Assembly (NCBI GenBank): GCA_965203925.1
Contig: OZ241924.1
Location: 6,741,206-6,805,205, forward strand
Length of the DNA: 64,000 nt
Origin: Bryobacterales bacterium
GTDB lineage: Bacteria; Acidobacteriota; Terriglobia; Bryobacterales; UBA6623
Reading direction: 5' to 3'
The translations under genes were made by a program, and so were the position numbers. Under the pieces are notes generated by a model. It was not told where the DNA came from. It saw only the letters and a list, made by a program, of their open reading frames with translations, and searched no databases. Positions 4,860-64,000 of the stretch are shown in pieces; position 1 is the first letter of the stretch, and each line of letters opens with the position of its first letter.

Positions 4860-6512
4860 GTGACTGCAACCGCTTGGGCCTTGGCCCTAGGCGTCAACGT
4901 CGCGATTGCAGCGGCGGGCTGGCTGAGGTCCAAGCGCCCGCGGGATGCGACCGGCTGGCAACTCGCGGCACGCCGTTTGGCCTGGCCCGCGGTCGGACTG
5001 TCGCTGTTCGCTACCGCCATCGACAGCGGGGACTTCGTAGCGGTGGTGGGAGGGGCCTACACCTATGGCATCTCCTACCTGACCACGTGGTGGCTAGGCC
5101 TGCCGATCGGATGGCTGCTGCTGACCAGCGCGGTCCTGGTCCCGGTCTACCGTTCCGGCTTCTTCACGAACGCGGAGTACCTCGAGGCAAGGTTCAGTCC
5201 GAGTGTCCGGCTGCTGGGAGCGCTGGTCCAGATCCAGCAGCGAACTCACGTGATGGGGAACATGGCCTATTCTCTGTTCCTGCTGCTGGGCCTGCTCACG
5301 GGCTGGGGAGACGCGGCGTGGTGGCTGGTGGTCGGGCTCGCCGCGCTCGCGGCCTGGTACACGGCCAGCGGGGGCCTGCGGACGGTGGTCGCTACAGACT
5401 CGCTGCAGGCATTGGCCATCGTGGCCGGCGCCGGACTGCTGTGGATCCTCTCCTGGCGCGGGGCAGGCGGCTGGGACGGTATCCAGCAGCGCCTCGGTGA
5501 TCTGGATCCGGACCTTCCCCGTCAGGTTCTGGCCTACTCGGGCTTGGCCGGGCCGGGAGCCCCGCTCGCCTTGGTGCTGTTCGGGTGGATCACCGTGCAC
5601 GTGGCCTACTCGATCGTGAACCACTCGCAAGCAATGCGACTTCTTGGATGCCGCAGTGCGCGGGACATGCGGGGTGCGGCGGCGGTCGCCTCTGGCGTGC
5701 TGATCCTTGTTACGTGGTGCACGGTGACGATGGGCATTGCGGCCCGGGCGATGTACCCCGGCCTGGAGCGTGTGGACGACGCGTTCCCGCGGCTGTTCGT
5801 GGACCATGCGAGCGGGCTCCTCGCGGGGCTTGTACTGGCCGGAGTGCTGGCGGCCTGCATGTCGACCTACGACTCGATCGGCTCGGCGCTTGGCGCGGTC
5901 TTCACGCGCGACGTGTTCGGCCGTTTCCTCGTGCCCGGAGCCGGGGAGCGCGCCAGCCTCTCGACGACGCGGGCGGCCTCGGCCCTGTGCATCGCGGTCT
6001 CATTCGCCTACGTGCCCTTCCTCGATCAGGGCATGGTGTCTTTCTACTTGCGCCTCTCAAGCGTTGCGGTTGTGCCCCTGGCGACGGTCTTCGCCATCGG
6101 CGCGCTGACCAAGGCATCGAAGGGCTCAGGACTGGCGGGCCTGCTGGCCGGAATGTGCTTCGGTCTCTTGTCAATGCTCGGCGACCGCCTCGGCTGGCCG
6201 CTTCCGCTGGAGATAACCAGCGTATGGTGGGGCTACTTCTGGGCCGTGGCAGTGACAGCGGCGGTGATGGCGGGCCACACGGCGTTCGTCGGCCCGGCCA
6301 GCCGGGAGTCGCTGGCGGGGTTGACGCTCGGCAGCTGCCGGCGGGGAGGCACGTTCCGCGGAACAGGCTCGGGCTGGCAGGAGCGCACGCGGGCCGCCGT
6401 TGCAGCAGCGACCCAGACGGCGGCGGGGACCCGCGGACGGTGGGATCCCCAATGGACCACTGTCGTTCTCGTGACGGTGGCAGGCATCGTTTACTTTCTC
6501 TCGTTCGACTGA
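4860..6512 (+). CDS. sodium:solute symporter (SSS/SLC5) family transporter
   Basis: 550 aa, polytopic with about 13 hydrophobic segments. Typical SSS N-terminus W..A.R.L....VG.SL.AT.....F. Confidence 0.8.
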   Translation: MTATAWALALGVNVAIAAAGWLRSKRPRDATGWQLAARRLAWPAVGLSLFATAIDSGDFVAVVGGAYTYGISYLTTWWLGLPIGWLLLTSAVLVPVYRSGFFTNAEYLEARFSPSVRLLGALVQIQQRTHVMGNMAYSLFLLLGLLTGWGDAAWWLVVGLAALAAWYTASGGLRTVVATDSLQALAIVAGAGLLWILSWRGAGGWDGIQQRLGDLDPDLPRQVLAYSGLAGPGAPLALVLFGWITVHVAYSIVNHSQAMRLLGCRSARDMRGAAAVASGVLILVTWCTVTMGIAARAMYPGLERVDDAFPRLFVDHASGLLAGLVLAGVLAACMSTYDSIGSALGAVFTRDVFGRFLVPGAGERASLSTTRAASALCIAVSFAYVPFLDQGMVSFYLRLSSVAVVPLATVFAIGALTKASKGSGLAGLLAGMCFGLLSMLGDRLGWPLPLEITSVWWGYFWAVAVTAAVMAGHTAFVGPASRESLAGLTLGSCRRGGTFRGTGSGWQERTRAAVAAATQTAAGTRGRWDPQWTTVVLVTVAGIVYFLSFD

Positions 6513-6578
6513 CGAGGGGGCCAACCGGGGAACGCTGAAACCGGCAACGCCGTCGAAGGAACGGCCCGGCGCTGCGCT

Positions 6579-7502
6579 ATGATTCGGGAGATGCGCGGCC
6601 GGACAGAGGTTCGCGTGCCGGCCTCAAGCGCGAATCTCGGACCCGGGTTCGACACTTTGGGCCTAGCCGTCGGCCTGTACCTGGAATGCCGCTTTCGACC
6701 CGCGGCCGAGCAGTCGATTTGCGTCCGCGGGCGCGACGCGGACCAGATACCAACCGGACCCGAAAACCTGATCCTCGCGACAGCCAGAGATGTCGCGGAG
6801 TCACTGGGGCGACGGCTTCCCCCCGTCGAACTGGAGATTGACAATGAGATCCCCGTGGGCAAGGGTCTCGGGTCGAGTGCGGCGGCCCTTGTGGCGGGCG
6901 TGGTGCTGGCGGACTACACGCTCGGCCTGAAGTGGGACGAGCACCGCCTGCTCGACGAGGCTGCTCGCATCGAGGGTCACCCCGACAATGTGGCGGCAGC
7001 TGTCCTGGGGTCGGTCACGACGGCCGCAATTGGCGACGACGGGGTCACGCGGGCAGTTCGGCTAGAAGTGCCCAGAGCCTTCTCAGTCGCGATCGTCTGC
7101 CCAGACTTCCCGCTCTCGACGGCATCCATGCGGGCAGCGCTTCCAGACTCGTACCGGCGCGCGGACGCGGTCTTTAACATTCAGCGCGCCACACTCCTCG
7201 TGGCAGCACTGCTGAAGGGTGACAGGGACGCCTTTCCCGTGGCGTTCGAGGACAGGCTGCACCAGCCGTACCGCGAGCGCCACGTGCCCGGGCTCGCAAG
7301 GATTCTGCGGATGCGTGCGGAAGGGCTGCTGGGATGTGCCCTCAGCGGGGCGGGGCCTGCGGTCCTGGTGCTGTACGATACGGGCCGAGTGGATGCGGTG
7401 CACGCGGTGGCCCGTGAGTTCGGGCGAACGGGGTGCTCTGCCGAGGTGATGTTCCCGCACTTGGACCGGACGGGCCTAGTGGTGAGGGAGAATCCGCCGT
7501 GA
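6579..7502 (+). CDS. thrB: homoserine kinase
   Basis: VPASSANLGPGFDTLGLAV and PVGKGLGSSAAALVAG (GHMP kinase motif). Confidence 0.9.
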   Translation: MIREMRGRTEVRVPASSANLGPGFDTLGLAVGLYLECRFRPAAEQSICVRGRDADQIPTGPENLILATARDVAESLGRRLPPVELEIDNEIPVGKGLGSSAAALVAGVVLADYTLGLKWDEHRLLDEAARIEGHPDNVAAAVLGSVTTAAIGDDGVTRAVRLEVPRAFSVAIVCPDFPLSTASMRAALPDSYRRADAVFNIQRATLLVAALLKGDRDAFPVAFEDRLHQPYRERHVPGLARILRMRAEGLLGCALSGAGPAVLVLYDTGRVDAVHAVAREFGRTGCSAEVMFPHLDRTGLVVRENPP

Positions 7503-7504
7503 GG

Positions 7505-8431
7505 ATGAGCGAGAGCCGGAAGGCGCTGGCCAAGCTCGGCCTGCCCGCCGCAGATGACCCCCCGGAGCCGTCCCCGAAACGATTCCCGGACGGCGGCCAA
7601 TTCAGGATCGAAATCCCCAGCACCGAGGGTCCCGCCAGCTTGCGCGCCGTGCTTGAGGAGGGCCGGGCCAGGGCTGTTCCCGTGCACCGGGTCAGCCAGG
7701 GCAGCGGCATCATGCTGCTGTGCGACGACGAGATCCGGGAAATGGCAGCACTTGGCGACGAGGCGGGGGTCGAGGTCAACCTCTTCATCGGCCCGCGGGC
7801 CACGTTCGACATCGGCGCGCAGGCCTACTCTGCGGCCGGCAAGGCGCTTGGCCTGAGCTTGCGCGGCAGCGATCAGCTGGTGTATGCGCTCGAGGATGCC
7901 CGTCGGGCGGTGCGGCTCGGAATCCGCAGCATCCTGGTCTCCGACATCGGCCTGCTGGAGATCATGGGACGGCTCAAGCGTACCGGCGACTTTCCGGGAG
8001 ACCTGATCCTAAAGACCTCGGTGATGATGGCGCCCGCAAACCCAAGCTCAGCCCGGCTCTTGGAGGATCTTGGAGCGACGACCGTCAACGTGCCCTCGGA
8101 CCTTTCGCTGGCGCAGCTCGCGGCGATCCGGAAGGCGATCGACGCCCCTATAGACCTCTACGTCGAGGCGCCCGACAACATCGGCGGATTCGTCCGCCAT
8201 TACGAAGTGCCGGACTTCGTGCGGTGCGGCGCACCGCTGTACGTCAAGCTCGGCCTTCGCAACGCGCCTGACATCTATCCGAGCGGCACGCACATCGAGC
8301 CCACCGCAATCCGCCTCTCGCGAGAGCGGGTCCGTCGGGCGCAGCTCGTGCTCGAACGCATCGCGCAGTACGGCCAAGATCTGCGAATGTCGCCGATCGG
8401 AGGACGGGCCGACGCACAGGGGAATGGCTGA
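7505..8431 (+). CDS. conserved hypothetical protein (possible TIM-barrel fold)
   Basis: ATG at 7505 lies 2 nt after the thrB stop. Alternating beta/alpha-like pattern and coding-like composition. I cannot name a family with confidence. Confidence 0.55.
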   Translation: MSESRKALAKLGLPAADDPPEPSPKRFPDGGQFRIEIPSTEGPASLRAVLEEGRARAVPVHRVSQGSGIMLLCDDEIREMAALGDEAGVEVNLFIGPRATFDIGAQAYSAAGKALGLSLRGSDQLVYALEDARRAVRLGIRSILVSDIGLLEIMGRLKRTGDFPGDLILKTSVMMAPANPSSARLLEDLGATTVNVPSDLSLAQLAAIRKAIDAPIDLYVEAPDNIGGFVRHYEVPDFVRCGAPLYVKLGLRNAPDIYPSGTHIEPTAIRLSRERVRRAQLVLERIAQYGQDLRMSPIGGRADAQGNG

Positions 8432-10837: not shown

Positions 10838-11280
10838 AGATACTTAGGGGAACAGTCAGGCCCAAGTTAAGGATAGGCCGTGCTGTGCCAGATGGCCGAC
10901 TCTATCCATGGCTCTGTGACCGGTGACAGGGCAAGGGCCATCCCCAGCGTTGCATAGGGACGCACCAGAAACCGGTGGCGAGCGCCCCTGATCACCACGC
11001 CCTCCCGGACATCGCTGACGAGAGGGTCGAGTCGCCTGAGTCAGTCTCATTTACGGGTGACTCGAATTCACACTCATTCCTGCTGTGAGGGAGTGACTAC
11101 GGGACAACAACGGCGCGCACGGCACCGCGATATCGGTCGCGGCGGGGGCAATGTCACAGAGAGTCGTAGCGGATCGAGCGGCGAGGATGGAAGCTGCGCA
11201 CGATGAGAGAGACCGTAACAGCCGACCCTGGGCCGTGACCAGTCAGGAAGGCCGGTTGCGGATTGAGCGCTGGGCCTAGG

Positions 11281-12135
11281 TCACCCAGTTGGAGGTGGTG
11301 CCGAACTGTGATTGCCGATGAGGGATGCCGAATCACTTTCGTACAGAAAGTAGTCCGCAGGCAGTACGAGGTACTTGGCCCAGAGCTGCCAAACCGCTCG
11401 CCAGCGATCAGAAGTCGGATCTGCTTCTGCAACTGGCAGGCCGAACCGTTTGGCGTCTGACGCTGAGACGATGGCTCTGTGATCCTTTGGTTCTCCGACC
11501 AGGTGCTTCCGAAGGCCTTCGGCCAAGGTGTTCACTTCGTCTGATGACCGAGACGAAACGCACGCGAGCGCTTCCGTGATCAGGTCGCCGGTTCGATCCA
11601 TTGCGTCACGGGCTTGCTGGACCATGAGGGCGGTGATATCGGACAGCATCGATGCGTGCAGAGTATATGTGGTTGGGTTGTTCTGTATACGATGCTCCGC
11701 CTCCTCGACGGCCGCGATGATCGCTCTCGCAGCGGCGAGCGAACCGTTCGGCAGGAGGAATTGGGGATCGACGGGTCCAAGATCGCTGGTCGGGCCCATA
11801 TAGATTCGGTCTGCCCCAAGAACGAACAACGTTCCTGCGCTCTTGGCTTGGTCAGGGACGATCACGGTCAGTTCACGGCAGCGGGACTGCGCTTGGCGAA
11901 CGAGCCGCAAGGCGGTCTCACCGTCGCCGCCGAGCGTAGCGAACATGATGTGCAGGTCCTCCCTTGGATCTGCACCAAAGAGTGTCTCCTCGAAGAACGG
12001 AACACTGCGGGGAAAGATCACGTCTCGCATCACAACCAGACGGCAGTGGTAGGCAGCCTGATAGTCCCGAATCTGCTGCTGGCGCTCGTACCGGCCAGCA
12101 TTGGCTGCTGCGTAGAGGGGTGTGACGGCCGTCAA
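11281..12135 (-). CDS. ClpP/crotonase-fold serine protease, SDH (serine dehydrogenase proteinase)/SppA-like family
   Basis: LHIMFATLGGDGETALRLVR...VIVPDQAKSAGTLFVLGADRIYMGPTSDLGPVDPQ, a Clp-fold protease pattern with the Ser in KSAGT. Confidence 0.6.
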   Translation of the reverse strand: MTAVTPLYAAANAGRYERQQQIRDYQAAYHCRLVVMRDVIFPRSVPFFEETLFGADPREDLHIMFATLGGDGETALRLVRQAQSRCRELTVIVPDQAKSAGTLFVLGADRIYMGPTSDLGPVDPQFLLPNGSLAAARAIIAAVEEAEHRIQNNPTTYTLHASMLSDITALMVQQARDAMDRTGDLITEALACVSSRSSDEVNTLAEGLRKHLVGEPKDHRAIVSASDAKRFGLPVAEADPTSDRWRAVWQLWAKYLVLPADYFLYESDSASLIGNHSSAPPPTG

Positions 12136-12350
12136 CGCTGGAACCTGATGGGCGGTCCCCGCAAGTCGAACGTCGAAGGCTTATTGGCCCGAGCCTTTCT
12201 GGTCTCTTCGCGTACCTGCTTGGCAATCTCGATCCGCTCGCGCCAATCTGGATCAATGCTTGGCGGTGGGGGCGACAACGCCGGGGAGGGGGTCGCGGAA
12301 TCCAGCTGCCGACTCCTCCGACCGGTTTGGGGTTTGGATGTTCTATTCAT
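12132..12350 (-). CDS. small hypothetical protein coupled to the SDH-family protease
   Basis: 72-aa reading MNRTSKPQ...DPDWRERIEIAKQVREETRKARANKPSTFDLRGPPIRFQR. Its stop overlaps the protease start by 4 nt. The 259-aa ORF in the track is an upstream over-extension. Confidence 0.4.
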   Translation of the reverse strand: MNRTSKPQTGRRSRQLDSATPSPALSPPPPSIDPDWRERIEIAKQVREETRKARANKPSTFDLRGPPIRFQR

Positions 12351-12402
12351 TCCGCCTCTCGCTGCCTCCGAGGCAAGGCACTTGCGTGGGCCCGCCCAGA
12401 TG

Positions 12403-12422
12403 GTGACGACATCGTTCGTCAC
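12403..12422. promoter_or_regulatory. 7-bp inverted repeat GTGACGA-N6-TCGTCAC in a divergent intergenic region
   Basis: Read directly from the sequence. It lies in the 129-bp gap between the divergent genes at 12350 (-) and 12480 (+). Confidence 0.25.
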
Positions 12423-12479
12423 AATGATACTGGATGAGGCCAACCGGCGTAGAAATCCCTGTCGCCGCCGTCGTTCCGG

Positions 12480-13109
12480 GTGTGTTATGTTCAACTCGTG
12501 GTCGGGCCATTTTTGCTTGCAATTGTTCTGGCGTGCGGAGGGGTAGCCCAAGCCGAACCCAGCCTGAGGGCCACTAGGGGATCGCAGGCCGAGCAGAACA
12601 GGCTGGCCGACGCGGACCACCTCAGTCGCATGAAGGACAAGGAGATGGTGCAGCGCTGGGCGCGGCTGAAGCTGCTTGTGCCGGTCAAGGAGCGCACCCA
12701 GGACTACTACCTCCACGCGGTGCCTTCCGACTATCGCTACTTGCGGCCGTGGGCCCATTTGTTGCTGACGCGGCTCGCCAGCCAGTTCCGGCAGCGGTTC
12801 CGGCGACCGTTGCGCGTCACAAGCCTCACTAGAACGGTCGGCTACCAGCGACAGCTGGCGCGGCGCAACGGCAACGCCGCCGCTTCGACGGGCCCCAAGG
12901 CGTCTGCGCATCTGACGGGTGCGTGCCTGGACATCTCAAAGAAGGGCATGAGCCGGACGCAGCAGTCTTGGGTCCGCAACGTCCTCTACCAGCTCAGGTC
13001 CAAGGGATACCTGTACGCAATCGAGGAATACCAGCAGCCCACCTTCCATGTGCTCGTGCTTCGCCGCTACGTGGACTACGTGCAAGAGCGACTCAGGGCC
13101 AAGACGTAG
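12480..13109 (+). CDS. DUF5715-like / peptidase M15-like cell-wall protein
   Basis: Signal peptide (LAIVLACGGVAQA). SAHLTGACLDIS resembles the S-x-H-x-x-G-x-A-x-D metal-binding motif of VanY/M15-type peptidases. Confidence 0.55.
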   Translation: MCYVQLVVGPFLLAIVLACGGVAQAEPSLRATRGSQAEQNRLADADHLSRMKDKEMVQRWARLKLLVPVKERTQDYYLHAVPSDYRYLRPWAHLLLTRLASQFRQRFRRPLRVTSLTRTVGYQRQLARRNGNAAASTGPKASAHLTGACLDISKKGMSRTQQSWVRNVLYQLRSKGYLYAIEEYQQPTFHVLVLRRYVDYVQERLRAKT

Positions 13110-13115
13110 GCGTTC

Positions 13116-14030
13116 TTGGGGGTGCCCTCGGTCGCCTCTTTGGCGGCCTTTCGGGAGGAAGCCGATAGCGTGGCCGCCGACGCGCATGGGCCGACCGCCG
13201 GCAGCAGCCGGATGGGCAAGCCGCGGCTGACAATGGCATACCAGACGAGGGGCACCCGCCGACCTAGCTGGTTGAGAGGACGGCGGGCGAGGAAGCGACA
13301 ATCTGGGTCCGGAGCCGGCCAAGAGACGCCGGGGACATCCCAAGCCGGTCCCGAGGCCATCTTTCGGGAACGGTTCCGCCGGCTGAAGCCAAGGACCGAA
13401 ACGCCGGCGTTCAAACTTCGCTTCCGGCCCTACGCCAGCCTGCGGTCGACCATTAAGATGCAGCCTGGCTCGCGCACGATCGAAGTGAATCTCAGCGACA
13501 TGCTGCGCGACGCCCCGCCGGATGTGCTGGACTCACTTGCCGCCATCCTGCTGTCAAAGCTGTACCGGCGGCAGATTCCCAAACGCACTCGGCGACGCTA
13601 TGAGCTGTGGACCCACAGCCAGGCCGTGCAGGACCGGATGCTTGCAGTCCGGCGTGAGCGGGGCCGCAAGAACGTGCTGCCGCCCGCTGGAACCGTGCAC
13701 GACCTGAACGCGCTGTTCGACAGGCTGAACCGCCGGCACTTCGCGGGGAGCCTGCGCAAGCCGGGCTTGGGCTGGAGCCCTAAAGCGTCCCGCAGGCGCC
13801 TCGGCCACTACGATCCGGCCCACGACGTAATCGTCATCAGCCGCATCTTCGATCAGGCTCGTGCGCCGGAGCTGGCGCTGGAGTACGTGCTATTTCACGA
13901 AATGCTGCACGTCAAGCACCCAGCGGAGCTTCGCGGAACGCGCCGGCGCGTCCACACGCCCGAATTTCAGGCCGAGGAACGGACATTCCCGGGCTACGAG
14001 CGCGCCAAGGAATTGATCCGCTCGCTCTGA
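13116..14030 (+). CDS. SprT-like / zincin-fold metallopeptidase-like protein
   Basis: C-terminal LEYVLFHEMLHVKHP....HTPEFQAEERTFPGYERA (HExxH plus a downstream His). The true start is probably downstream of 13116. Confidence 0.6.
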   Translation: MGVPSVASLAAFREEADSVAADAHGPTAGSSRMGKPRLTMAYQTRGTRRPSWLRGRRARKRQSGSGAGQETPGTSQAGPEAIFRERFRRLKPRTETPAFKLRFRPYASLRSTIKMQPGSRTIEVNLSDMLRDAPPDVLDSLAAILLSKLYRRQIPKRTRRRYELWTHSQAVQDRMLAVRRERGRKNVLPPAGTVHDLNALFDRLNRRHFAGSLRKPGLGWSPKASRRRLGHYDPAHDVIVISRIFDQARAPELALEYVLFHEMLHVKHPAELRGTRRRVHTPEFQAEERTFPGYERAKELIRSL

Positions 14031-55215: not shown

Positions 55216-56663
55216 TCCGCTGGACGCAGATCGGCCGGATCATCGGACTGTTCCTGATCGCGCTCGCGGGCGCGATGATGATCCCGTGCGCGTACTCGAT
55301 CGCCACTGGCGACGATGACCTAGCGCCGCTGGCCGCGGCAGTGGCAGTCACGGCGGTAGCGGGCGGCGTGCTAGCGGGAAGCTGCCGCAGGGCGCGGAGA
55401 GAACTCACGCAGCGAGAAGGCATCCTGCTCACCGTGGCTGTGTGGCTCGCCGCATCCGTCTTTGGCGGCCTGCCGTTCCTGTTCGCTCCTGGAATCGAGA
55501 CCTTCACGGACGCAGTATTTGAGTCCGCTTCGGGGGTGACCACGACCGGTGCAACCATCCTCGTCGAAGTGGAGCGGCTGTCACGGCCGCTGCTGCTGTG
55601 GCGCGCGCTCTCCTCGTGGCTGGGGGGCATGGGCATTGTCGTCCTAGTGATCGCCGTCCTGCCATTGGTCGGGCACGGCGGGATGCACCTGTACCGCGCC
55701 GAATTCTCCGGCGCATCCTCCGAGAAACTGTCCCCGCGCGTCGCAGAGACGGCAGGCTCTCTCTGGGGCATTTACCTTGCGCTTACCAGCCTATTGGTCG
55801 GCTTACTTGCGGTCGCCGGAATGGGGCCCTTCGACGCGATCGCCCATGCGTTCGCGACGATGGCCACGGGCGGTTTCTCGACGCGGACGGCCAGCATTGG
55901 CGCCTTCGACAGCTCCACGATCGAATACATCACTACGCTGTTCATGATCCTTGGGGGCTGCAGCTTCATCCTGCACTATCGTGCCCTGATCGAGCGGCGA
56001 CCGATTGCGGCGCTGCGTGACTACGAACTGCGAAACTTTCTCGGCCTGGTCGCGTTGGCTACCCTCGTCGAGGCTGCGCTGCTGCTCTTCGATCGCGGCT
56101 ATCCTCTCGAGAGGGCGCTGCGGACCGCTGTCTTTCAGGTCTCCTCGATCACCACCACCACCGGCTTCGCAACCGACGACTTTGAGGCATGGCCACCCCT
56201 AGGCCAGCTTCTCCTGCTTGCGCTGATGTTCACCGGCGGCTGTACCGGTTCTACAGCGGGAGGGATGAAGGTCTCGAGGCTGCTCGTGCTGGTTAAGGTG
56301 GTCGGCCGCGAGTTCAAGCGCATGGTCGAACGCCACGGAGTGTTCGTAGTGCGCCTTGGAGGCTCGGTGATCCCGGAGCCGTCGATCCAGAGCCTTCTCA
56401 ATCTGGTCTACCTCGCCTTCGTGGTCAACTTCGCGTCCTGCCTGATGCTGGCCGCGGTGGGTGTCGACGTGTTCACCGCGATCTCAGCGGTGGCCGCAAC
56501 TATGTTCAACATCGGCCCGGCCCTCGCCGGAGTCGGCCCGACAGACAACTACGCCGGCTTGCCAGCCATCGCCAAGTGGGTGCTGTGCTTCGACATGATT
56601 GCTGGCCGCTTGGAGTTCTACACGCTGCTCGTGACCGTTACACCGTGGTTCTGGCGGAAGTAG
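55212..56663 (+). CDS. trkH: Trk potassium uptake system membrane subunit
   Basis: Polytopic, with repeated pore-loop motifs (SGVTTTG, TGGFS, TTTGFA, GGCTGSTAGGMK). GTGA overlap with the trkA stop. Confidence 0.9.
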   Translation: MIRWTQIGRIIGLFLIALAGAMMIPCAYSIATGDDDLAPLAAAVAVTAVAGGVLAGSCRRARRELTQREGILLTVAVWLAASVFGGLPFLFAPGIETFTDAVFESASGVTTTGATILVEVERLSRPLLLWRALSSWLGGMGIVVLVIAVLPLVGHGGMHLYRAEFSGASSEKLSPRVAETAGSLWGIYLALTSLLVGLLAVAGMGPFDAIAHAFATMATGGFSTRTASIGAFDSSTIEYITTLFMILGGCSFILHYRALIERRPIAALRDYELRNFLGLVALATLVEAALLLFDRGYPLERALRTAVFQVSSITTTTGFATDDFEAWPPLGQLLLLALMFTGGCTGSTAGGMKVSRLLVLVKVVGREFKRMVERHGVFVVRLGGSVIPEPSIQSLLNLVYLAFVVNFASCLMLAAVGVDVFTAISAVAATMFNIGPALAGVGPTDNYAGLPAIAKWVLCFDMIAGRLEFYTLLVTVTPWFWRK

Positions 56664-56677
56664 CCATATCCGTGCTA

Positions 56678-57637
56678 TCATGATGGGGTCCGGTTGGCCT
56701 GGTGCCGGTTACCAAGCTTTCCGTCGAGGGGGGTGCGGGCAACACTCCCCTCGGTTTTTTCCTGCGCCAGTTCGCGAAGGAGGGAATCCTTGCGGTGGGC
56801 GCCCCTGACAATTCGCGCGAGGCGGTTGCGCCTGGCGGTGTTCCAAGCGGTGTAGTACCGCTCGGTGGTTTGCACGCTGCTGTGGCCCAGCAGGGTACTG
56901 ACGTCGTGCATGGCCACCCCCGAGAGGAGCAGCTCGACGGCAAAAGTGTCCCGCAGGCGGTGTGGGTGAAAGCCCTCGACACCCGCCGCGGTGGCGACCC
57001 CCCGGAGTCGCCGCCGCCAGTACTTCGTGCAGGTCTCACGGAGTGACCTGCCCGTCCAGAAGTAGTGCGGCCCGTACCGCTCGGGCAGACCCTCGAGCGC
57101 CGCTATCACAGGCGCCGGCAGCAGTACAGTCACGAGCTCGCCGCTCTTGGCGCGGCGCAGGACGAGCTCGCCACACTCCCTCAAATCGCTCCTCGGGAGG
57201 GTGACGGCGTCGCCGATCGCCAGCCCGGACCAGCGCATCAGCAGCATCAGCGCTCGCTCCGGGGAGCCCCCCGGCGCGGCCGCCAGAAGGCGCCGCATCT
57301 CGTCCCGCTCCAAGGGCAGTGTCTGCTTCTGTCGCGCCTTCGGGGGCCGTATGCGGGCCGCCGGGGACTGGTCGACCCAGCCTTCTTGCACGGCGTGGCG
57401 GTAGAACGCCTTGATCCGCCCCAGCTCTGTCCGCCGCGTGCTGGCGGCCAGGCCCCTCTCCTCGAGCCAATTCCGCAGCGCGTCGGCGTCGATCTGGTCG
57501 AGGTCGACCAGGTCGCGACGGTCGGCGTACGCCTCCAGCGACCGGAACGTGCACGCGTGTCCGGCACGGGTCGAGCGCCTCAGGTCTCGAGCCTTGAGGT
57601 CGCGCAGCCAGGCTTTCACCGCCGCGCCGAGCGTCAC
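56678..57637 (-). CDS. tyrosine recombinase / phage-type integrase
   Basis: RWSGLAIGD (Arg I), HPHRLRDTFA (H-x-x-R) and LLGHSSVQTTERYY (His/Tyr nucleophile). GTG at 57637 overlaps the resolvase stop (GTGA). The 840-aa ORF in the track is an artefactual fusion. Confidence 0.85.
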   Translation of the reverse strand: MTLGAAVKAWLRDLKARDLRRSTRAGHACTFRSLEAYADRRDLVDLDQIDADALRNWLEERGLAASTRRTELGRIKAFYRHAVQEGWVDQSPAARIRPPKARQKQTLPLERDEMRRLLAAAPGGSPERALMLLMRWSGLAIGDAVTLPRSDLRECGELVLRRAKSGELVTVLLPAPVIAALEGLPERYGPHYFWTGRSLRETCTKYWRRRLRGVATAAGVEGFHPHRLRDTFAVELLLSGVAMHDVSTLLGHSSVQTTERYYTAWNTARRNRLARIVRGAHRKDSLLRELAQEKTEGSVARTPLDGKLGNRHQANRTPS

Positions 57638-58230
57638 ACCGGGACTCCCTTGTGGATGCCCGGATAGGCGTCGGGGTCCCCGCCCGGGAACCACTTGTAG
57701 AGCGTCGAGACGTCGATGCCGAGGCTCTTGGCGATCTCGGTCCTGAGCAGGCGCTTGTCGCGCAGCAAGGCCTGCACCCTGCGGACGTGCTCGGGGTCGT
57801 GGAACGGCGACCGGCGCCCCCACAGCTCCCCCCGCTCGCGGGCGAGCCGGGCGGCGAGCCTGGTGCGCTCCCGCGCCAGGTCCGCCTCCATCTCGGCCAG
57901 CGCGGCGAACAGGACGAAGACCAGCCGCCCGCCGGGGGTGCCGGTGTCGATCGCCTCGGTCAGGGACACCAGCTGGCAGCCGCGCCGCTGCAGGCGCGCC
58001 GCCAGGTCGAGCATGTGGCGCACGGAGCGGGCCAGGCGGTCGAAGCGCCAAACGACCAGGCTGTCCCCGGGCCGCAGGAACTCCAGGCACTCGTCGAGCT
58101 GCTCGCGCGCCTCCAGGCGTCCGGAGGCCTTGTCCCGGAACACCCTCTCGCAGCCCTGCCCCTGCAGGGCGCGGAGCTGCGCCTCCGGGTCCTGGTCCAA
58201 CGTGCTCACGCGCGCGTATCCGACTCGCAT
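57634..58230 (-). CDS. serine recombinase (resolvase/invertase family)
   Basis: MRVGYARVSTLDQDPEAQ (catalytic Ser), VVWRFDRLARS, and a C-terminal HTH (RTEIAKSLGIDVSTLYKW). Confidence 0.9.
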   Translation of the reverse strand: MRVGYARVSTLDQDPEAQLRALQGQGCERVFRDKASGRLEAREQLDECLEFLRPGDSLVVWRFDRLARSVRHMLDLAARLQRRGCQLVSLTEAIDTGTPGGRLVFVLFAALAEMEADLARERTRLAARLARERGELWGRRSPFHDPEHVRRVQALLRDKRLLRTEIAKSLGIDVSTLYKWFPGGDPDAYPGIHKGVPV

Positions 58231-58270
58231 TGCCGATATCGCTCCTTCCCCGAAGTATAGGCGCAGGCCA

Positions 58271-58370
58271 TCGGCAAGCCCATCGGCAATGCCTCCGGGG
58301 CCTGTTCCGGGCCGTTCGGGGCCGCTCCCGGGACCGTTGCCGAAAGGACCCTTTCGGCAACGGTCGGCAA
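58271..58370. promoter_or_regulatory. res-like recombinase binding-site cluster
   Basis: TCGGCAA occurs at 58271, 58283, 58354 and 58364, and inverted (TTGCCGA) at 58337. The segment 58335-58362 is a 28-bp palindrome: CGTTGCCGAAAGG-AC-CCTTTCGGCAACG. The cluster starts 41 bp upstream of the resolvase start codon. Confidence 0.45.
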
Positions 58371-58439
58371 TGGCGCCGTATTAGAATCCGGCCAGTGCCG
58401 CGCATTCCAGGTGACGAGGCAGGGGAGCTCCGGGAGGCC

Positions 58440-58877
58440 ATGCGCGCGGCGCGCGCCAGATCGCTGCGCTTCGGCGAGATGCTGGCCCGCCATCTCCAGC
58501 GCAGGCAGTGGGTCCAGGGACTGTCCTTCGGGCTGTCGTCCGCAGCGGCGCTCGCGGTCCTCGCGGGGCCCTGGCCGCGGGTCGCGGCCGTGCTGGCGGG
58601 GGCCGTGGCGGTCGCGAACGCCTGGGGGGCTGCCGCCTGCCCGCACCAGGAGCTCGTCAGGCTCGCGGCGCTGAGGAGCGGCTGGGAGTCCCTGCGAATC
58701 GACTGCGGCAGCCTCTTGTCCAGCCGGCGCGGGGGCGGGGCGCGGGGGCGGTTCGACGCGCTGCAGCAGCGTGCCGACCGCCTCGGGTCACTGGCGAGTT
58801 CCGGAAGTCCCCGGAAACCGGGCGCGGCAGGGCGCTGGGAGCGCTTCGCGGGTTGCGGGACCGATCGGGAGGCCTGA
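58440..58877 (+). CDS. small 2-TM membrane protein
   Basis: MRAARARSLRFGEMLARHLQRRQW, then two hydrophobic helices (LSFGLSSAAALAVLAG and VAAVLAGAVAVANAWGAA), then a helical tail. An alternative in-frame GTG lies at 58395. The topology is reminiscent of SLATT-type domains, but this is speculative. Confidence 0.45.
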   Translation: MRAARARSLRFGEMLARHLQRRQWVQGLSFGLSSAAALAVLAGPWPRVAAVLAGAVAVANAWGAAACPHQELVRLAALRSGWESLRIDCGSLLSSRRGGGARGRFDALQQRADRLGSLASSGSPRKPGAAGRWERFAGCGTDREA

Positions 58878-58886
58878 GGCGCATCG

Positions 58887-59243
58887 ATGGCTGACGGCTC
58901 GATCGACGGCCGCCGGCCGGCCTGGGGCGGGCCGGGGCGGTTCGCTGCGGAGAAGGGGAGGATCGAGCGGCACCGGCGCGAGATGCAGCGCAGGCAGGCG
59001 GAGCATCTCGCCAGGCTGAAGCGCCGCGGCCGGCTGTTCGGTTTCTGGTTCGCCGCCCTGTCGGCCCTCGCAGCCCTGTCGGCGGCCGCAAGCGGCAGGC
59101 CGCTGCATGCTGCCGTCGTGGCGGCGGCCGCCGCCGCCATGTTCGCCCTCCTGCGCGGCGCGTGGAGCAGCGCACCACCCCTGCCTGAGGCCAGGCCCAT
59201 CGGCCCGCCGCCTGCGCCGCGGAAGCCTACAATGGGCTCCTGA
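58887..59243 (+). CDS. small 2-TM membrane protein
   Basis: Basic coiled segment RIERHRREMQRRQAEHLARLKRRGR, then LFGFWFAALSALAALSAAA and LHAAVVAAAAAAMFALL. It starts 9 nt after the upstream gene and overlaps the next gene with TGATG. Confidence 0.45.
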   Translation: MADGSIDGRRPAWGGPGRFAAEKGRIERHRREMQRRQAEHLARLKRRGRLFGFWFAALSALAALSAAASGRPLHAAVVAAAAAAMFALLRGAWSSAPPLPEARPIGPPPAPRKPTMGS

Positions 59244-59548
59244 TGCCCGATTCCCCGACGCCGCAGCCGGACTCCAAGCTCCTGTTCGACCTGCTCTTGG
59301 ACTTGAAGATGGAGCCGGGGGGCGCCTATACTTTCACTCAGGAGGTCGGGAACATGGCCGCCGCCAATCTCATCGCCCGCTTCGAGTCCAAGCTCGATGC
59401 GCAGGGCTCTCGCTTCGACTCCAGGCTCGAGGCCCAGAACACGCAGACGGCCTCGCTGAAGTCCGAGATTGCCTCGCTCCGCTGGATGATCGGCCTCGGG
59501 TTCACCCTGCTGGCCCTGCTCATCACCCTGCTTCGCTTCCTAGGCTGA
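59243..59548 (+). CDS. DUF1640-like coiled-coil protein with C-terminal TM anchor
   Basis: LLFDLLLDLKMEPGGAYTFTQEV... coiled coil ...WMIGLGFTLLALLITLLRF. It is a paralogue of the gene at 62937-63203. Confidence 0.55.
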   Translation: MPDSPTPQPDSKLLFDLLLDLKMEPGGAYTFTQEVGNMAAANLIARFESKLDAQGSRFDSRLEAQNTQTASLKSEIASLRWMIGLGFTLLALLITLLRFLG

Positions 59549-60105: not shown

Positions 60106-60162
60106 ATAGCATGTTACGATACAGGGAGTGATTGGGCCGGAATGTGTAACGTAACATGCTAT
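60106..60162. promoter_or_regulatory. 13-bp perfect inverted repeat in an AT-rich divergent promoter region
   Basis: ATAGCATGTTACG (60106-60118) and CGTAACATGCTAT (60150-60162), with a 31-bp spacer. Extra GTAAC copies lie at 60099, 60146 and 60163. Confidence 0.4.
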
Positions 60163-60212
60163 GTAACTACTCTGACTCGACATCCGTCTCATGTTGCAGG
60201 AGGTGGCTCACG

Positions 60213-60452
60213 ATGGCAGGAAGGGATTGGCGTGACCCGGACGGGACGCTCCGCACCTGGAGCATCCAGAGGCGCGATCCGGTCTCGTGGCTGTGGGGGA
60301 CCGTGCGCAGGTCGCGCGGCTCCTACCGGCAGGCCTGCCTGCTGGCTGATGAGCTGGAGCACCGGGAGGAGTGCCTGGCCTACCCGCGCCGCTGGCCCGA
60401 GCCCGAACCCGCCGCCTGGCGCGTGGTCAGCGACGAGCACGAGACGGCATGA
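60213..60452 (+). CDS. small hypothetical protein (79 aa), paralogue of 60496-60783
   Basis: AGGAGG lies 9 nt upstream. MAGRDWRDPDGTLRTWSIQRRDPVSWLWGTVRR...ACLLADEL...AAWRVVSDEHE. Confidence 0.5.
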   Translation: MAGRDWRDPDGTLRTWSIQRRDPVSWLWGTVRRSRGSYRQACLLADELEHREECLAYPRRWPEPEPAAWRVVSDEHETA

Positions 60453-60467
60453 TAAGCGCGGGGCACG

Positions 60468-60500
60468 CCCGGGCGGGACTGGCAGGAGGACGACCATGGA
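60468..60500. repeat. 33-bp duplicated leader, copy 1 (CCCGGGCGGGACTGGCAGGAGGACGACCATGGA)
   Basis: Identical to 60769-60801 except for one base (G/A). It contains the SD and ATG of the downstream gene. Confidence 0.8.
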
Positions 60501-60783
60501 GAAACGGGACAGACCCGAGCGGGTGCACAAGATGACCTGGGCAATCCAGTCGCGCGATCGGCTCACGGGCCGAAGGTGGCGGACAGTGCGGGAGGGGATC
60601 GCGACCGCCGAGGAGGCCTGCGAATTGGCCCTGGACTACCCCGGGAACTGGGGCTGGACGTCGTGGCGCGTGGTCAGCGAGGAGCGCGAGGGTCTCGCGG
60701 CTGGCGGCGTCGTTGAGCCCCCTGGCGGGTGGCGAGCGTGGAGGAGACGGCTGACGCGCCCGGGCCGGCCCGGGCGGGACTGA
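60496..60783 (+). CDS. small hypothetical protein (95 aa), paralogue of 60213-60452
   Basis: MEKRDRPERVHKMTWAIQSRDRLTGRRWRTVREG...ACELALDY...TSWRVVSEEREG shares the W-x-IQ-x-RD...W-x-TVR...AC-x-LA...WRVVS-[DE]-E pattern. Confidence 0.5.
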   Translation: MEKRDRPERVHKMTWAIQSRDRLTGRRWRTVREGIATAEEACELALDYPGNWGWTSWRVVSEEREGLAAGGVVEPPGGWRAWRRRLTRPGRPGRD

Positions 60784-60801
60784 CAGGAGGACGACCATGG
60801 A
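60769..60801. repeat. 33-bp duplicated leader, copy 2
   Basis: CCCGGGCGGGACTGACAGGAGGACGACCATGGA. The TGA inside it is the stop of the upstream gene, and the ATG is the start of the KfrA-like gene. Confidence 0.8.
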
Positions 60802-61384
60802 CAAGCCGGAGATCTTCGAGGCCTGCGAGCGGATCGCGGAGGGGGGCGGCAAGCTCACCGTGCGGTCGCTGCGCGACGAGCTGGGGCGGGGCAGCTTCAG
60901 CGAGCTGGGGCCCGCCCTGCGGGAGTGGAAGCGGGAGCGCGCCAGGCAGCCCCCCGCGGGCGCGCCCGTTCCGGACGACGTCGCCGAACTGGGGGGCGGC
61001 CTGGCCCTGCAGCTGTGGAAGCTGGCCCTCGCCCAGTCCGAGGAGCGGCTGGCGGCCGAGCGGGGGGCGCTGCAGGAGGCGCGCGAAGAGCTGGAGGCCG
61101 AGCGCTCCGAGGCGGAGCGCTTCGCCGACGAGATGGAGGCCCAGATGCGCGAGCACGCGGCCCGGGCGGAGGCGGCCGGGCGCAAGGCCGAGGAGACTGC
61201 CAAGGAGGCCGCGGCCCGGGAGGCGTGGCTCAAGGAGCGCCTCGACAAGGCCCAGGCGGAGGCCCGGGAGGCCCGGGCCCGCGAGGCGGAGATCCGCGCG
61301 GCCGCCGCGCGTTCGGAGGGGCAGGCCGAGGCCCTGAAGGCGCAGGTCGCGGCGCTGACGGAGCGGTTGGGGGAGCGCTCGTGA
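60797..61384 (+). CDS. KfrA-like DNA-binding protein (N-terminal HTH-like domain + long E/A/R coiled coil)
   Basis: IFEACERIAEGGGKLTVRSLRDELGRGSFSELGPALREWK resembles the KfrA_N plasmid DNA-binding domain. The rest is an alanine/glutamate/arginine coiled coil. Confidence 0.65.
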   Translation: MDKPEIFEACERIAEGGGKLTVRSLRDELGRGSFSELGPALREWKRERARQPPAGAPVPDDVAELGGGLALQLWKLALAQSEERLAAERGALQEAREELEAERSEAERFADEMEAQMREHAARAEAAGRKAEETAKEAAAREAWLKERLDKAQAEAREARAREAEIRAAAARSEGQAEALKAQVAALTERLGERS

Positions 61385-62936: not shown

Positions 62937-63203
62937 CTACTCTGCCCCCATCCGGAGGATGGCCACGAGGGCAAGAACGGCCGCGACGGCGGCACAGACG
63001 AGGATCACCAGCCGCTGGAATCCCCCCAGCCCGGATTCCAGGGCGTCGATCCGGGCCTCGACGCGGGCCTCGACGCGGGTGATGAAGTTCTCCGCCGCCA
63101 TGTGCCGCACCTCCCGCACGCAGGCATAGGCCTCCTTGGGGTCGGCGCCCATCTTGACCAGCAGGTCGAAGAGGCGGCTGTCGTCCGGCGGGGCGTGCCT
63201 CAT
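62937..63203 (-). CDS. DUF1640-like coiled-coil protein with C-terminal TM anchor
   Basis: SRLFDLLVKMGADPKEAYACVREVRHMAAENFITRVEARVEARIDALE...LVILVCAAVAAVLALVAIL. Its start overlaps the ssb stop by 4 nt. Confidence 0.6.
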   Translation of the reverse strand: MRHAPPDDSRLFDLLVKMGADPKEAYACVREVRHMAAENFITRVEARVEARIDALESGLGGFQRLVILVCAAVAAVLALVAILRMGAE

Positions 63204-63574
63204 GCGGAGGGCCTCATGCCGCTTCCCGCTGCCCGGTGCGGCGGCTTCCTGGGGGTCAGCACGACGACGTCCCTCGCGCGGCAGGCCACCTCGGTCCGCC
63301 AGCGCGTCTCGCCGTCCTGGTCCCAGCTGCGCGTGCGCAGCCGGCCGCTTACGTGCAGCCGGACGCCCTTGCGCAGCATCGGCCGGAGGGGCCCGGCGTC
63401 CCAGATCGTCACGTCGTGCCACTCCGTGGCCTCGGCCCACCCGCCGTCCGCGCCCCTGGCGGGGCGGTTCGTGGCAAGCCGCACGTGCGCGACGGGCGTG
63501 CCGTCGGCGTCGCGCCAGGTCGGGGCCTGCCCGACGTTGCCGAGCAGGAAGACCTGGTTCACGGAGACTGCCAT
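63200..63574 (-). CDS. ssb: single-stranded DNA-binding protein (OB fold), no acidic C-terminal tip
   Basis: VNQVFLLGNVGQAPTWR...VRLATN...TEWHDVTIW...LRKGVRLHVSGRLRTRSWDQDGETRWRTEV. It ends ...RAAGSGMRPSA rather than with the D-D-D-I-P-F type tail. Confidence 0.8.
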   Translation of the reverse strand: MAVSVNQVFLLGNVGQAPTWRDADGTPVAHVRLATNRPARGADGGWAEATEWHDVTIWDAGPLRPMLRKGVRLHVSGRLRTRSWDQDGETRWRTEVACRARDVVVLTPRKPPHRAAGSGMRPSA

Positions 63575-63630
63575 GGCCCGATAGTCCCACGGCCGGGCCG
63601 CGCTGGCCAGCGATGAGTCCGGCCCGCGCC

Positions 63631-63951: not shown

Positions 63952-64000
63952 GCGGCACCCGCGGTCGTCGGGGCCCAGCCGCCAGCCCAGGTTCTCGCAG

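Follow-up and report, generated by a model that had tools for sequence, protein, structure and literature searches.

An overlapping serine–tyrosine recombinase gene pair, bounded by candidate sites for both enzymes, at the edge of an integrated element in Bryobacterales

At the edge of an integrated element in a Bryobacterales genome (Acidobacteriota; assembly GCA_965203925.1, contig OZ241924.1, positions 6,741,206 to 6,805,205) two site-specific recombinases, a small serine recombinase and a tyrosine recombinase (integrase), are encoded by genes that overlap by four bases. The window referred to below is this whole stretch of 64,000 nucleotides. The element appears to be inserted at the stop codon of the chromosomal gene trkH, and the cassette appears to run in the order res – serine recombinase – tyrosine recombinase – att, where res denotes a resolution site and att an attachment-type site. 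Probably these are two independent site-specific systems in one autoregulated operon: the tyrosine enzyme would integrate and excise the element, whereas the serine enzyme would resolve multimers and probably regulates its own expression. What the sequences show directly is the integrity of the genes, the conserved overlap, the presence of both sites, the boundary of the element, a second insertion locus, and cargo of the kind found on plasmids and integrative and conjugative elements (ICEs).

The arrangement is of interest for several reasons. Acidobacteriota are a dominant soil phylum, and their mobile elements are almost uncharacterised. In many Bryobacterales genomes the cassette identifies one edge of integrated elements that are plasmid-like and probably in part conjugative, and it offers a simple handle for delimiting them in metagenome-assembled genomes. 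It packs two orthogonal site-specific recombinases and both of their short sites into 1.7 kb, and it occurs in many variants with co-varying sites; if active, recombinases and sites could serve as orthogonal parts for genome engineering. Finally, a stop/start overlap combined with a res site lying over the putative promoter region provides a testable model that links multimer resolution to the supply of integrase.

The gene pair and its overlap

The serine recombinase (protein N-terminus MRVGYARVSTLDQ) is encoded on the minus strand by a gene that ends in GTG TGA. The TGA occupies 57636–57634 and the GTG, at 57637–57635, is in frame with the downstream tyrosine gene, whose own stop codon lies at 56678–56680. 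The tyrosine gene and trkH are convergent and separated by a gap of 14 bp (56664–56677); ARAGORN, run on the whole 64-kb window, detected neither tRNA nor tmRNA. An earlier, sequence-only reading of the window had placed the integrase start at the GTG embedded in the end of the resolvase gene and the integrase stop 14 bp from that of trkH, and had seen no tRNA at the junction: direct inspection of the sequence and the ARAGORN result agree with it on each point. The same reading had named a start further downstream as one finding that would count against it. Such a start is not indicated, because all 22 aligned homologues begin with 'MT..' at the column of the GTG.

A homologue scan that took one genome per species returned 78 loci, almost all of them from metagenome-assembled genomes of Bryobacterales (Acidobacteriota). 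In 47 of these, the paired loci, the serine gene stands directly upstream of the tyrosine gene; searches with each recombinase separately gave lists with many contigs in common, and some genomes carry up to 5–6 copies. Among the 47 related Bryobacterales loci having both genes, 44 show an exact 4-bp overlap (ATGA or GTGA), and integrase starts divide into 24 ATG and 23 GTG. It is this shared overlap that leads us to conclude that the pair is more than a chance neighbourhood. Pairwise identities among the serine proteins correlate with those among the tyrosine proteins (Mantel r=0.65, a value reached by 0 of 2000 permutations); discordant pairs are also present, which points to occasional reshuffling of the two genes. 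The conserved overlap and the correlated distance matrices together answer in the affirmative the question, raised from the sequence of the window, of whether the pair is conserved.

Ahead of the integrase start a Shine–Dalgarno (SD)-like motif occurs in only 21 of the 47 paired loci, against a background of 13%; in the window this is GGGAG, at about −9 to −13. Such a count would fit an integrase that depends on termination and reinitiation at the end of the resolvase gene. Of the coupling by GTGA proposed earlier, the overlap itself is borne out in the 44 loci, whereas translational coupling of the two genes is a prediction from this geometry. One apparent fusion of the two proteins (P0045, 524 amino acids, from a contig of 730921 bp, with Resolvase and Phage_integrase domains) was rejected as probably a frameshifted gene call; its residues from about 100 to 200 resemble an out-of-frame translation of the resolvase gene.

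The tyrosine recombinase matches PF00589 (E=1e-16) and the SAM-like N-terminal domains PF13102/PF02899. Residues R135, K164, H226-x-x-R229, H252 and Y262 are invariant in 23 aligned proteins (that of the window and the 22 homologues); the enzyme looks intact and is predicted to be catalytically active. It opens directly with the SAM-like domain and has no arm-binding N-domain, a two-domain architecture like that of Xer proteins, and its best sequence matches in the PDB are XerC-like, XerA and XerD (E 1e-13 to 1e-10). We rejected the possibility that it is the chromosomal XerC or XerD: scores against TIGR02224/02225 are 91/84 bits, far under the cut-offs of 335/330, and the gene is multicopy (up to 5–6 per genome) and located at an element/chromosome junction.

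The serine recombinase matches Pfam Resolvase PF00239 (E=8.6e-41) over residues 3–135, has Ser9 in the YARVST motif and shows a weak match to HTH_23, a helix-turn-helix (HTH) family, at residues 152–180. Its best PDB match is Gin invertase (4m6f, E=2e-36), which aligns end to end over 181 residues including Ser9; γδ/Tn3 resolvase follows at about 5e-20 and Sin at 8e-16.

The two sites and the boundary of the element

Site I of res, the candidate crossover site, reads GTTGCCGAAAGG-AC-CCTTTCGGCAAC on the plus strand and begins 131 nt upstream of the ATG of the serine gene. The palindrome occurs once in the window, even when 3 mismatches are allowed. Of 42 loci, 29 have a 12-2-12 site with co-varying arms (at least 8 of 12 arm matches) at −125 to −141; the arms vary between loci yet remain symmetric, and the centre dinucleotide is mostly AT. 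In addition, the half-site belonging to each locus is repeated as direct copies at +71 and +83 and as an inverted copy at about +121, over the start codon. Against a background of permuted locus pairings these recurrences have z values of 5.7 (+71), 4.2 (+83) and 4.4 (+121). In the window, five of the 17 matches to TTGCCGAW fall inside 58230–58360. Between the accessory half-sites lies a −10-like hexamer, TATACT in the window and of gatacaat type in relatives, and occlusion of this putative promoter by the recombinase is plausible. In res sites of the Sin type, site I is accompanied by a head-to-tail site II (PMC2428073); we assign the present site as Sin-like because an inverted-repeat site I is followed by a spacer and then by head-to-tail half-sites. 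Of 22 relatives, 20 lack a second crossover site within ±10 kb, and a generic repeat search of 56.5–64 kb revealed no convincing repeats bounding an invertible segment in this G+C-rich DNA. A single crossover site fits a predicted role in resolution, not inversion.

In locus L012 (OX638379.1) the 3.4 kb upstream of the serine gene contain three site-I-like palindromes (at 5928, 8229 and 9273), perhaps the marks of a segment that can be deleted or inverted, perhaps remnants of other res sites; L039 has one weak extra match, and 20 of the 22 tested loci have none. Divergent from the serine gene is an open reading frame (58230–58877, plus strand) without a Pfam or PHROG match, which has homologues at the same position in L007, L048 and others and may be a conserved accessory gene beside res.

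At the other end of the cassette lies the junction (att-type) site of the tyrosine recombinase. Its consensus, (G)TAGCACA-N3-6-TGTGGTTAGTT, lies over or directly after the integrase stop in most related loci and was found almost nowhere else in a regular-expression search of 1.6 Mb of fetched DNA. The inner arm GGTAGCACATGA supplies the final integrase codons (..GST*) of many relatives; the integrase stop of the window sits just before the inner arm, so that integration need not alter the integrase protein. About 20 homologous integrases have no serine partner, and these solo homologues still have the junction site. Where a single genome holds several copies, similarity between them ends 1–26 nt past the integrase stop and can extend for more than 10 kb on the side of the serine gene. 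No second att-type site was found within 10 kb upstream in more than 80 loci, which implies elements longer than 10 kb.

The boundary of the element is apparent from composition and from comparison. G+C steps from about 0.64 to 0.72–0.76 at ~57 kb and stays at 0.70–0.77 up to the end of the window. Element-free metagenomic relatives (L088–L090), with TrkH proteins at least 90% identical, lack the recombinases; the genes next after trkH are those for an AAA_22 protein and an FG-GAP protein, and then comes the his operon. These relatives cease to resemble the window at 56661, in the stop codon of trkH; this codon is TGA in the relatives and TAG in the window. The end of trkH reads ...CGGAAGTGACCGAG in the element-free relatives and ...CGGAAGTAGCCATATCC in the window (in a longer alignment, ...TGGCGGAAGTGACCGAG and ...TGGCGGAAGTAGCCATATCCGTGCTATC). 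Read in the orientation of the integrase the element-free sequence is GGTCACTT; it matches the outer arm and is identical to that of L008. In spite of a junction within the stop codon the length of TrkH is unchanged at 483 amino acids. A copy of the module, 96.5% identical, sits at an unrelated locus on another contig (L087), and its similarity to the window stops at 56672, after TAGCAC. The element is accordingly mobile and trkH one of many targets. Chromosome/element boundary and crossover are thereby placed to within 56661–56672.

These comparisons bear on what the sequence-only reading had proposed for this junction. The element edge that it drew is marked by the G+C jump, by the loss of similarity to L088–L090 at 56661 and by the copy at L087; the attachment site that it expected in the 3' end of trkH is met as a junction in the trkH stop codon, with a conserved site of ~24 nt across both stops; and the relatives lacking the element, to which it looked for a comparison, are without recombinases and put the similarity boundary at 56661.

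The far side was sought by several routes. The right flank of the element-free locus is not present in the window, and two metagenome scans with the flank that follows trkH in the element-free relatives gave no match. A walk that started at the far-side FG-GAP gene led no further than a decayed remnant in a different strain (L091), where no clear junction was seen. A comparison of the downstream flanks of all loci with the element bodies, in search of attP or tandem forms, returned unrelated repeats only. L001, a candidate for the circular (attP) form, was rejected as a decayed copy, its integrase gene being frameshifted and its att site missing.

The trkH insertion is found in other loci. L085 has it as in the window, and L084 and L086 have a decayed form with a 485-bp deletion. 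L084 and L091, from sample NGUY21-1 (scaffolds 879 and 934), share the insertion in decayed form: their first serine–tyrosine pair has the 485-bp deletion and a collapsed att site, and a second, partial res–serine–tyrosine module, 78% identical, lies ~3 kb further, beside SocA_Panacea and FG-GAP genes. The interval from trkH to the FG-GAP gene looks like an insertion hot spot; in the element-free relatives it holds an AAA_22/STAND-like NTPase gene. On the strand of trkH, 60 nt past its stop and inside the 3' coding part of the integrase gene, there is a terminator-like G+C-rich hairpin with a T run (56723–56755, plus strand), which could end trkH transcripts that have run on into the element. 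Folding of the wider region is unexceptional (z=-1.1), and similar hairpin-capable sequence lies at the matching place in L084 and L001.

Table 1. Coordinates of the recombinase genes, their sites and neighbouring features in the window.
Feature	Position	Strand	Remarks
trkH, 483 amino acids	55212–56663	+	chromosomal gene adjoining the element; Pfam TrkH E=4e-64
trkH stop codon TAG	56661–56663		partly beyond the end of similarity with element-free relatives
Junction (att-type) site of the tyrosine recombinase, ~24 nt	56658–56681	-	reads ATGATAGCACGGATATGGCTACTT; spans both stops
Outer arm of junction site, GGCTACTT	56658–56665
Inner arm of junction site, TAGCAC	56672–56677
Tyrosine recombinase (integrase), 319 amino acids, GTG start	56678–57637	-	PF00589 and SAM-like N domain
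GTGA overlap (serine-gene stop TGA, tyrosine-gene start GTG)	57634–57637	-	direct reading of sequence
Small serine recombinase, 198 amino acids	57634–58230	-	PF00239; catalytic domain and C-terminal HTH
Accessory part of res	58230–58289	-	overlaps putative promoter and start codon
Inverted accessory half-site across the serine ATG	58230–58237
SD of serine gene, GGAAGGAG	58243–58250		read on minus strand
−10-like TATACT	58254–58259		read on minus strand
Two head-to-tail accessory half-sites, TTGCCGAT	58270–58277, 58282–58289
res site I, candidate crossover site, 26 bp	58336–58361	-	perfect 12-2-12 palindrome
KfrA-like DNA-binding protein	60797–61384	+	plasmid-type cargo; PF11740 KfrA_N E=1e-23
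SSB	63200–63577	-	plasmid/ICE-type cargo; PF00436 E=1e-19

The cargo is of plasmid and ICE type. Besides the KfrA-like protein and SSB the element in the window encodes several small unknown proteins. Beside the cassette in L082 and L083 are genes for ParA, KfrA, RepA_C, a methyltransferase-HNH protein and a type ISP restriction enzyme, with KfrA adjoining the pair in L082; in copies from genome OZ242366, TrbL/VirB6, VirB8, CagX/VirB9 and TrbI/VirB10 are encoded no more than 10 kb from the pair. Among the loci examined, none was seen to carry a relaxase gene. The integrase relatives in viral, plasmid and phage collections were all distant (at most 36% identity), these collections gave no reference element, and a search of 52–64 kb against Rfam gave no match. 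From this gene content we regard the elements as plasmid-like integrative elements of Bryobacterales, probably conjugative.

Two sets of repeats within the cargo deserve mention. Tandem paralogous small genes with a repeated block of upstream and ribosome-binding-site sequence occupy 60156–60810; 60461–60509 and 60762–60810 are 88% identical, the second block preceding the KfrA-like gene, and further repeats are 60255–60287/60535–60567 and 60417–60443/60664–60690. Two paralogous small proteins (59243–59548, plus strand, and 62937–63210, minus strand) combine a coiled coil with a C-terminal membrane anchor and share the motif ..LFDLL..AY..EV..MAA.N; the 5' ends of their genes form an 80% inverted repeat (59266–59295/63160–63189).

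Division of labour, cassette exchange and competing explanations

In the proposed division of labour the Xer-like tyrosine enzyme would act on the ~24-nt site overlapping the end of its own gene. It would insert the element next to chromosomal DNA similar to the outer arm (GGTYASTT) and presumably would excise it too; its target specificity would be intermediate, not strict. The serine enzyme would bind the Sin-like res, comprising site I, spacer, head-to-tail half-sites and the further half-site over the ATG, and would recombine directly repeated copies of it, with the consequence that multimers or cointegrates of the circular form would be resolved. Since the sole evident promoter region lies inside res, and since the integrase start overlaps the resolvase stop, occupancy of res by the resolvase would throttle both genes, and integrase synthesis would depend on translation of the resolvase gene. 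A division of labour between the two enzymes had been suggested from the window alone; it holds in so far as each recombinase has a cognate site of its own, and solo tyrosine homologues keep the junction site without a serine gene.

A number of observations weigh against this account. Ten nucleotides at the junction (56662–56671) match neither the element-free relatives nor the copy at L087, and the 'empty' locus of L088–L090 may not be the exact ancestral state before insertion, because the interval from trkH to the FG-GAP gene carries different DNA in different strains. Neither attL nor a flanking direct repeat was found, the element running past the end of the window at 64000. By sequence the serine enzyme is nearer to Gin invertase than to characterised resolvases. 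A scan of res for the sigma-70 consensus found no promoter, which leaves the promoter a putative one, and a 4-bp overlap is common operon geometry in bacteria and no proof of coupling. Finally, the 7.3 kb of the element visible in the window contain no conjugation genes.

The distribution of breakpoints between related copies provides information on what is exchanged. In five independent copy sets (L008/L048, 97% identical and from the same genome; L010/L068; L011/L015; L042/L049/L052; and L031/L035) homology runs from site I (−17 to +1 of its centre) to just past the integrase stop, and the DNA beyond the cassette is unrelated on both sides. Inspection of three pairs (L008/L048, L010/L068 and L011/L015) showed left half-sites that are intact at the breakpoints but slightly different. 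Just such a pattern is expected if two complete res sites recombine at their centres. Another set of breakpoints is located ~20 nt into the integrase gene. The 1.7-kb block res–serine–tyrosine–att thus appears to behave as an exchangeable cassette. In L069 (OZ252099.1) a 2.6-kb direct repeat, 96.7% identical (5693–8302 and about 11170–13780), flanks the serine–tyrosine module; the integrase there is frameshifted, and the repeat may be a duplication or an insertion sequence.

We tentatively raise a more specific possibility, one in which we place limited confidence: res and att may be the two ends of a natural unit of recombinase-mediated cassette exchange, the 1.7-kb block being swapped between Bryobacterales plasmids and ICEs by one serine crossover at site I and one tyrosine crossover at att. 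Occupancy of res would then gate the integrase through the overlapping stop and start, and so link multimer or copy state to integration.

Among explanations that compete with two independent systems, one holds that the serine protein mainly controls the integrase, as a directionality or expression factor tied to copy number or multimer state, or that the enzymes cooperate so that res and att bound an exchangeable or mobile 1.7-kb cassette. The strict conservation of the overlap, an SD-like motif before the integrase in only 21 of 47 loci, half-sites that cover the putative promoter region and the start codon, and shared DNA that coincides exactly with the cassette in five independent sets, including the same-genome pair L008/L048, all speak for it. 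Nevertheless we consider it unlikely: since ~20 solo integrases retain the att-type site without a serine gene, the integrase does not need a serine partner, the two genes have been shuffled in some lineages with breakpoints ~20 nt into the tyrosine gene, and intact left half-sites fit an ordinary exchange between two res sites, not the insertion of a cassette.

An explanation that we rate as improbable is that the pairing has no functional meaning, the compact operon and its 4-bp overlap being the usual packing of genes inherited from a single ancestor. ATGA/GTGA is the commonest type of overlap in bacterial operons. The second integrase codon (Thr2, ACN) supplies the final A of TGA, so that ATGA also occurs at the starts of solo integrases, and the loci of the family fall almost all within one order, Bryobacterales. 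Set against this, the overlap is kept across pairs only 35–50% identical and through serine/tyrosine reshuffling just downstream, and purifying selection on the junction is indicated by the 44 of 47 loci that keep it, in ATG as well as GTG variants.

We regard it as very improbable that the serine enzyme works as a Hin/Gin-type DNA invertase, flipping a segment of the element such as a promoter or host-range switch. In favour of this, its best solved-structure match is Gin, well above the resolvases, source annotations of its homologues read 'DNA invertase Pin-like', the core of site I (...GAAAGG-NN-CCTTTC... in a 12-2-12 arrangement) resembles hix/gix sites, and L012 has its three palindromes in 3.4 kb. 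Against it, the site is single in 64 kb at up to 3 mismatches, 20 of 22 relatives are without a second copy within ±10 kb, accessory half-sites stand at fixed offsets between site I and the gene, a feature typical of res but not of the sites of invertases, and the centre dinucleotide is mostly the symmetric AT. The role in inversion that the sequence-only reading had offered beside multimer resolution is disfavoured by the same single crossover site.

Relation to known systems

Neither enzyme family is new, and the same holds for res sites, for att sites located where integrase genes end, and for ICEs with partition and replication genes. The novelty lies in a conserved serine–tyrosine cassette with overlapping genes and a cognate site at either end, carried by Acidobacteriota elements of an uncharacterised family; the literature searched contains no description of this gene pair. 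The pairing of two such recombinases, regarded as unusual when the window was first read, is so only in a relative sense, serine recombinases being found beside tyrosine integrases elsewhere. In tycheposons a tyrosine recombinase and a small serine recombinase belong to an integration/replication module (bioRxiv 10.1101/2020.12.28.424599). These elements belong to another host phylum and target tRNA genes, and the excerpted text of that preprint mentions neither a conserved overlapping gene pair nor a cassette bounded by res and att.

XerT, of the Helicobacter pylori elements ICEHptfs/TnPZ, is a Xer-like ICE recombinase of intermediate site specificity (PMC4234485). Like the enzyme described here it is a two-domain Xer-type recombinase encoded at one end of its element, and its many insertion loci have only a short motif in common; the element of XerT bears a type IV secretion system and encodes ParA (PMC4234485). 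In some relatives of the present element VirB homologues or ParA are encoded near the pair. There is no close sequence relation between the two, however: the motif is AAGAATG in the case of XerT and a ~24-nt site ending in GGTYASTT here, and XerT has no serine recombinase partner.

Some integrases, such as IntP of the Myxococcus phage Mx8, have an attachment site that overlaps the 3' end of the int gene. The att-type site described here likewise overlaps the integrase stop, but the stop sits just before the inner arm, there are no phage genes, and phage and viral collections gave no close matches. The invertases Hin, Gin, Cin and Pin are the closest solved relatives of the serine enzyme and share with it a 12-2-12 crossover site; they differ in that here there is no inverted pair of sites and no evident invertible segment, and accessory half-sites are present.

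The closest parallel in site architecture is to the res systems of Sin and the β recombinase (and more broadly Tn3/γδ), whose small serine recombinases likewise have the catalytic domain at the N-terminus and an HTH at the C-terminus. In Sin-like systems, as here, an inverted-repeat crossover site with a 2-bp centre is followed by a spacer and head-to-tail half-sites (PMC2428073), and res lies directly upstream of the recombinase gene, with one site per replicon. In the window, site I and the candidate accessory part through the direct repeats span about 95 bp, compared with 86 bp in the res of Sin. The system further differs from Sin in a protein sequence nearer to that of Gin, in an extra inverted half-site over the start codon, and in forming an operon with a tyrosine integrase.

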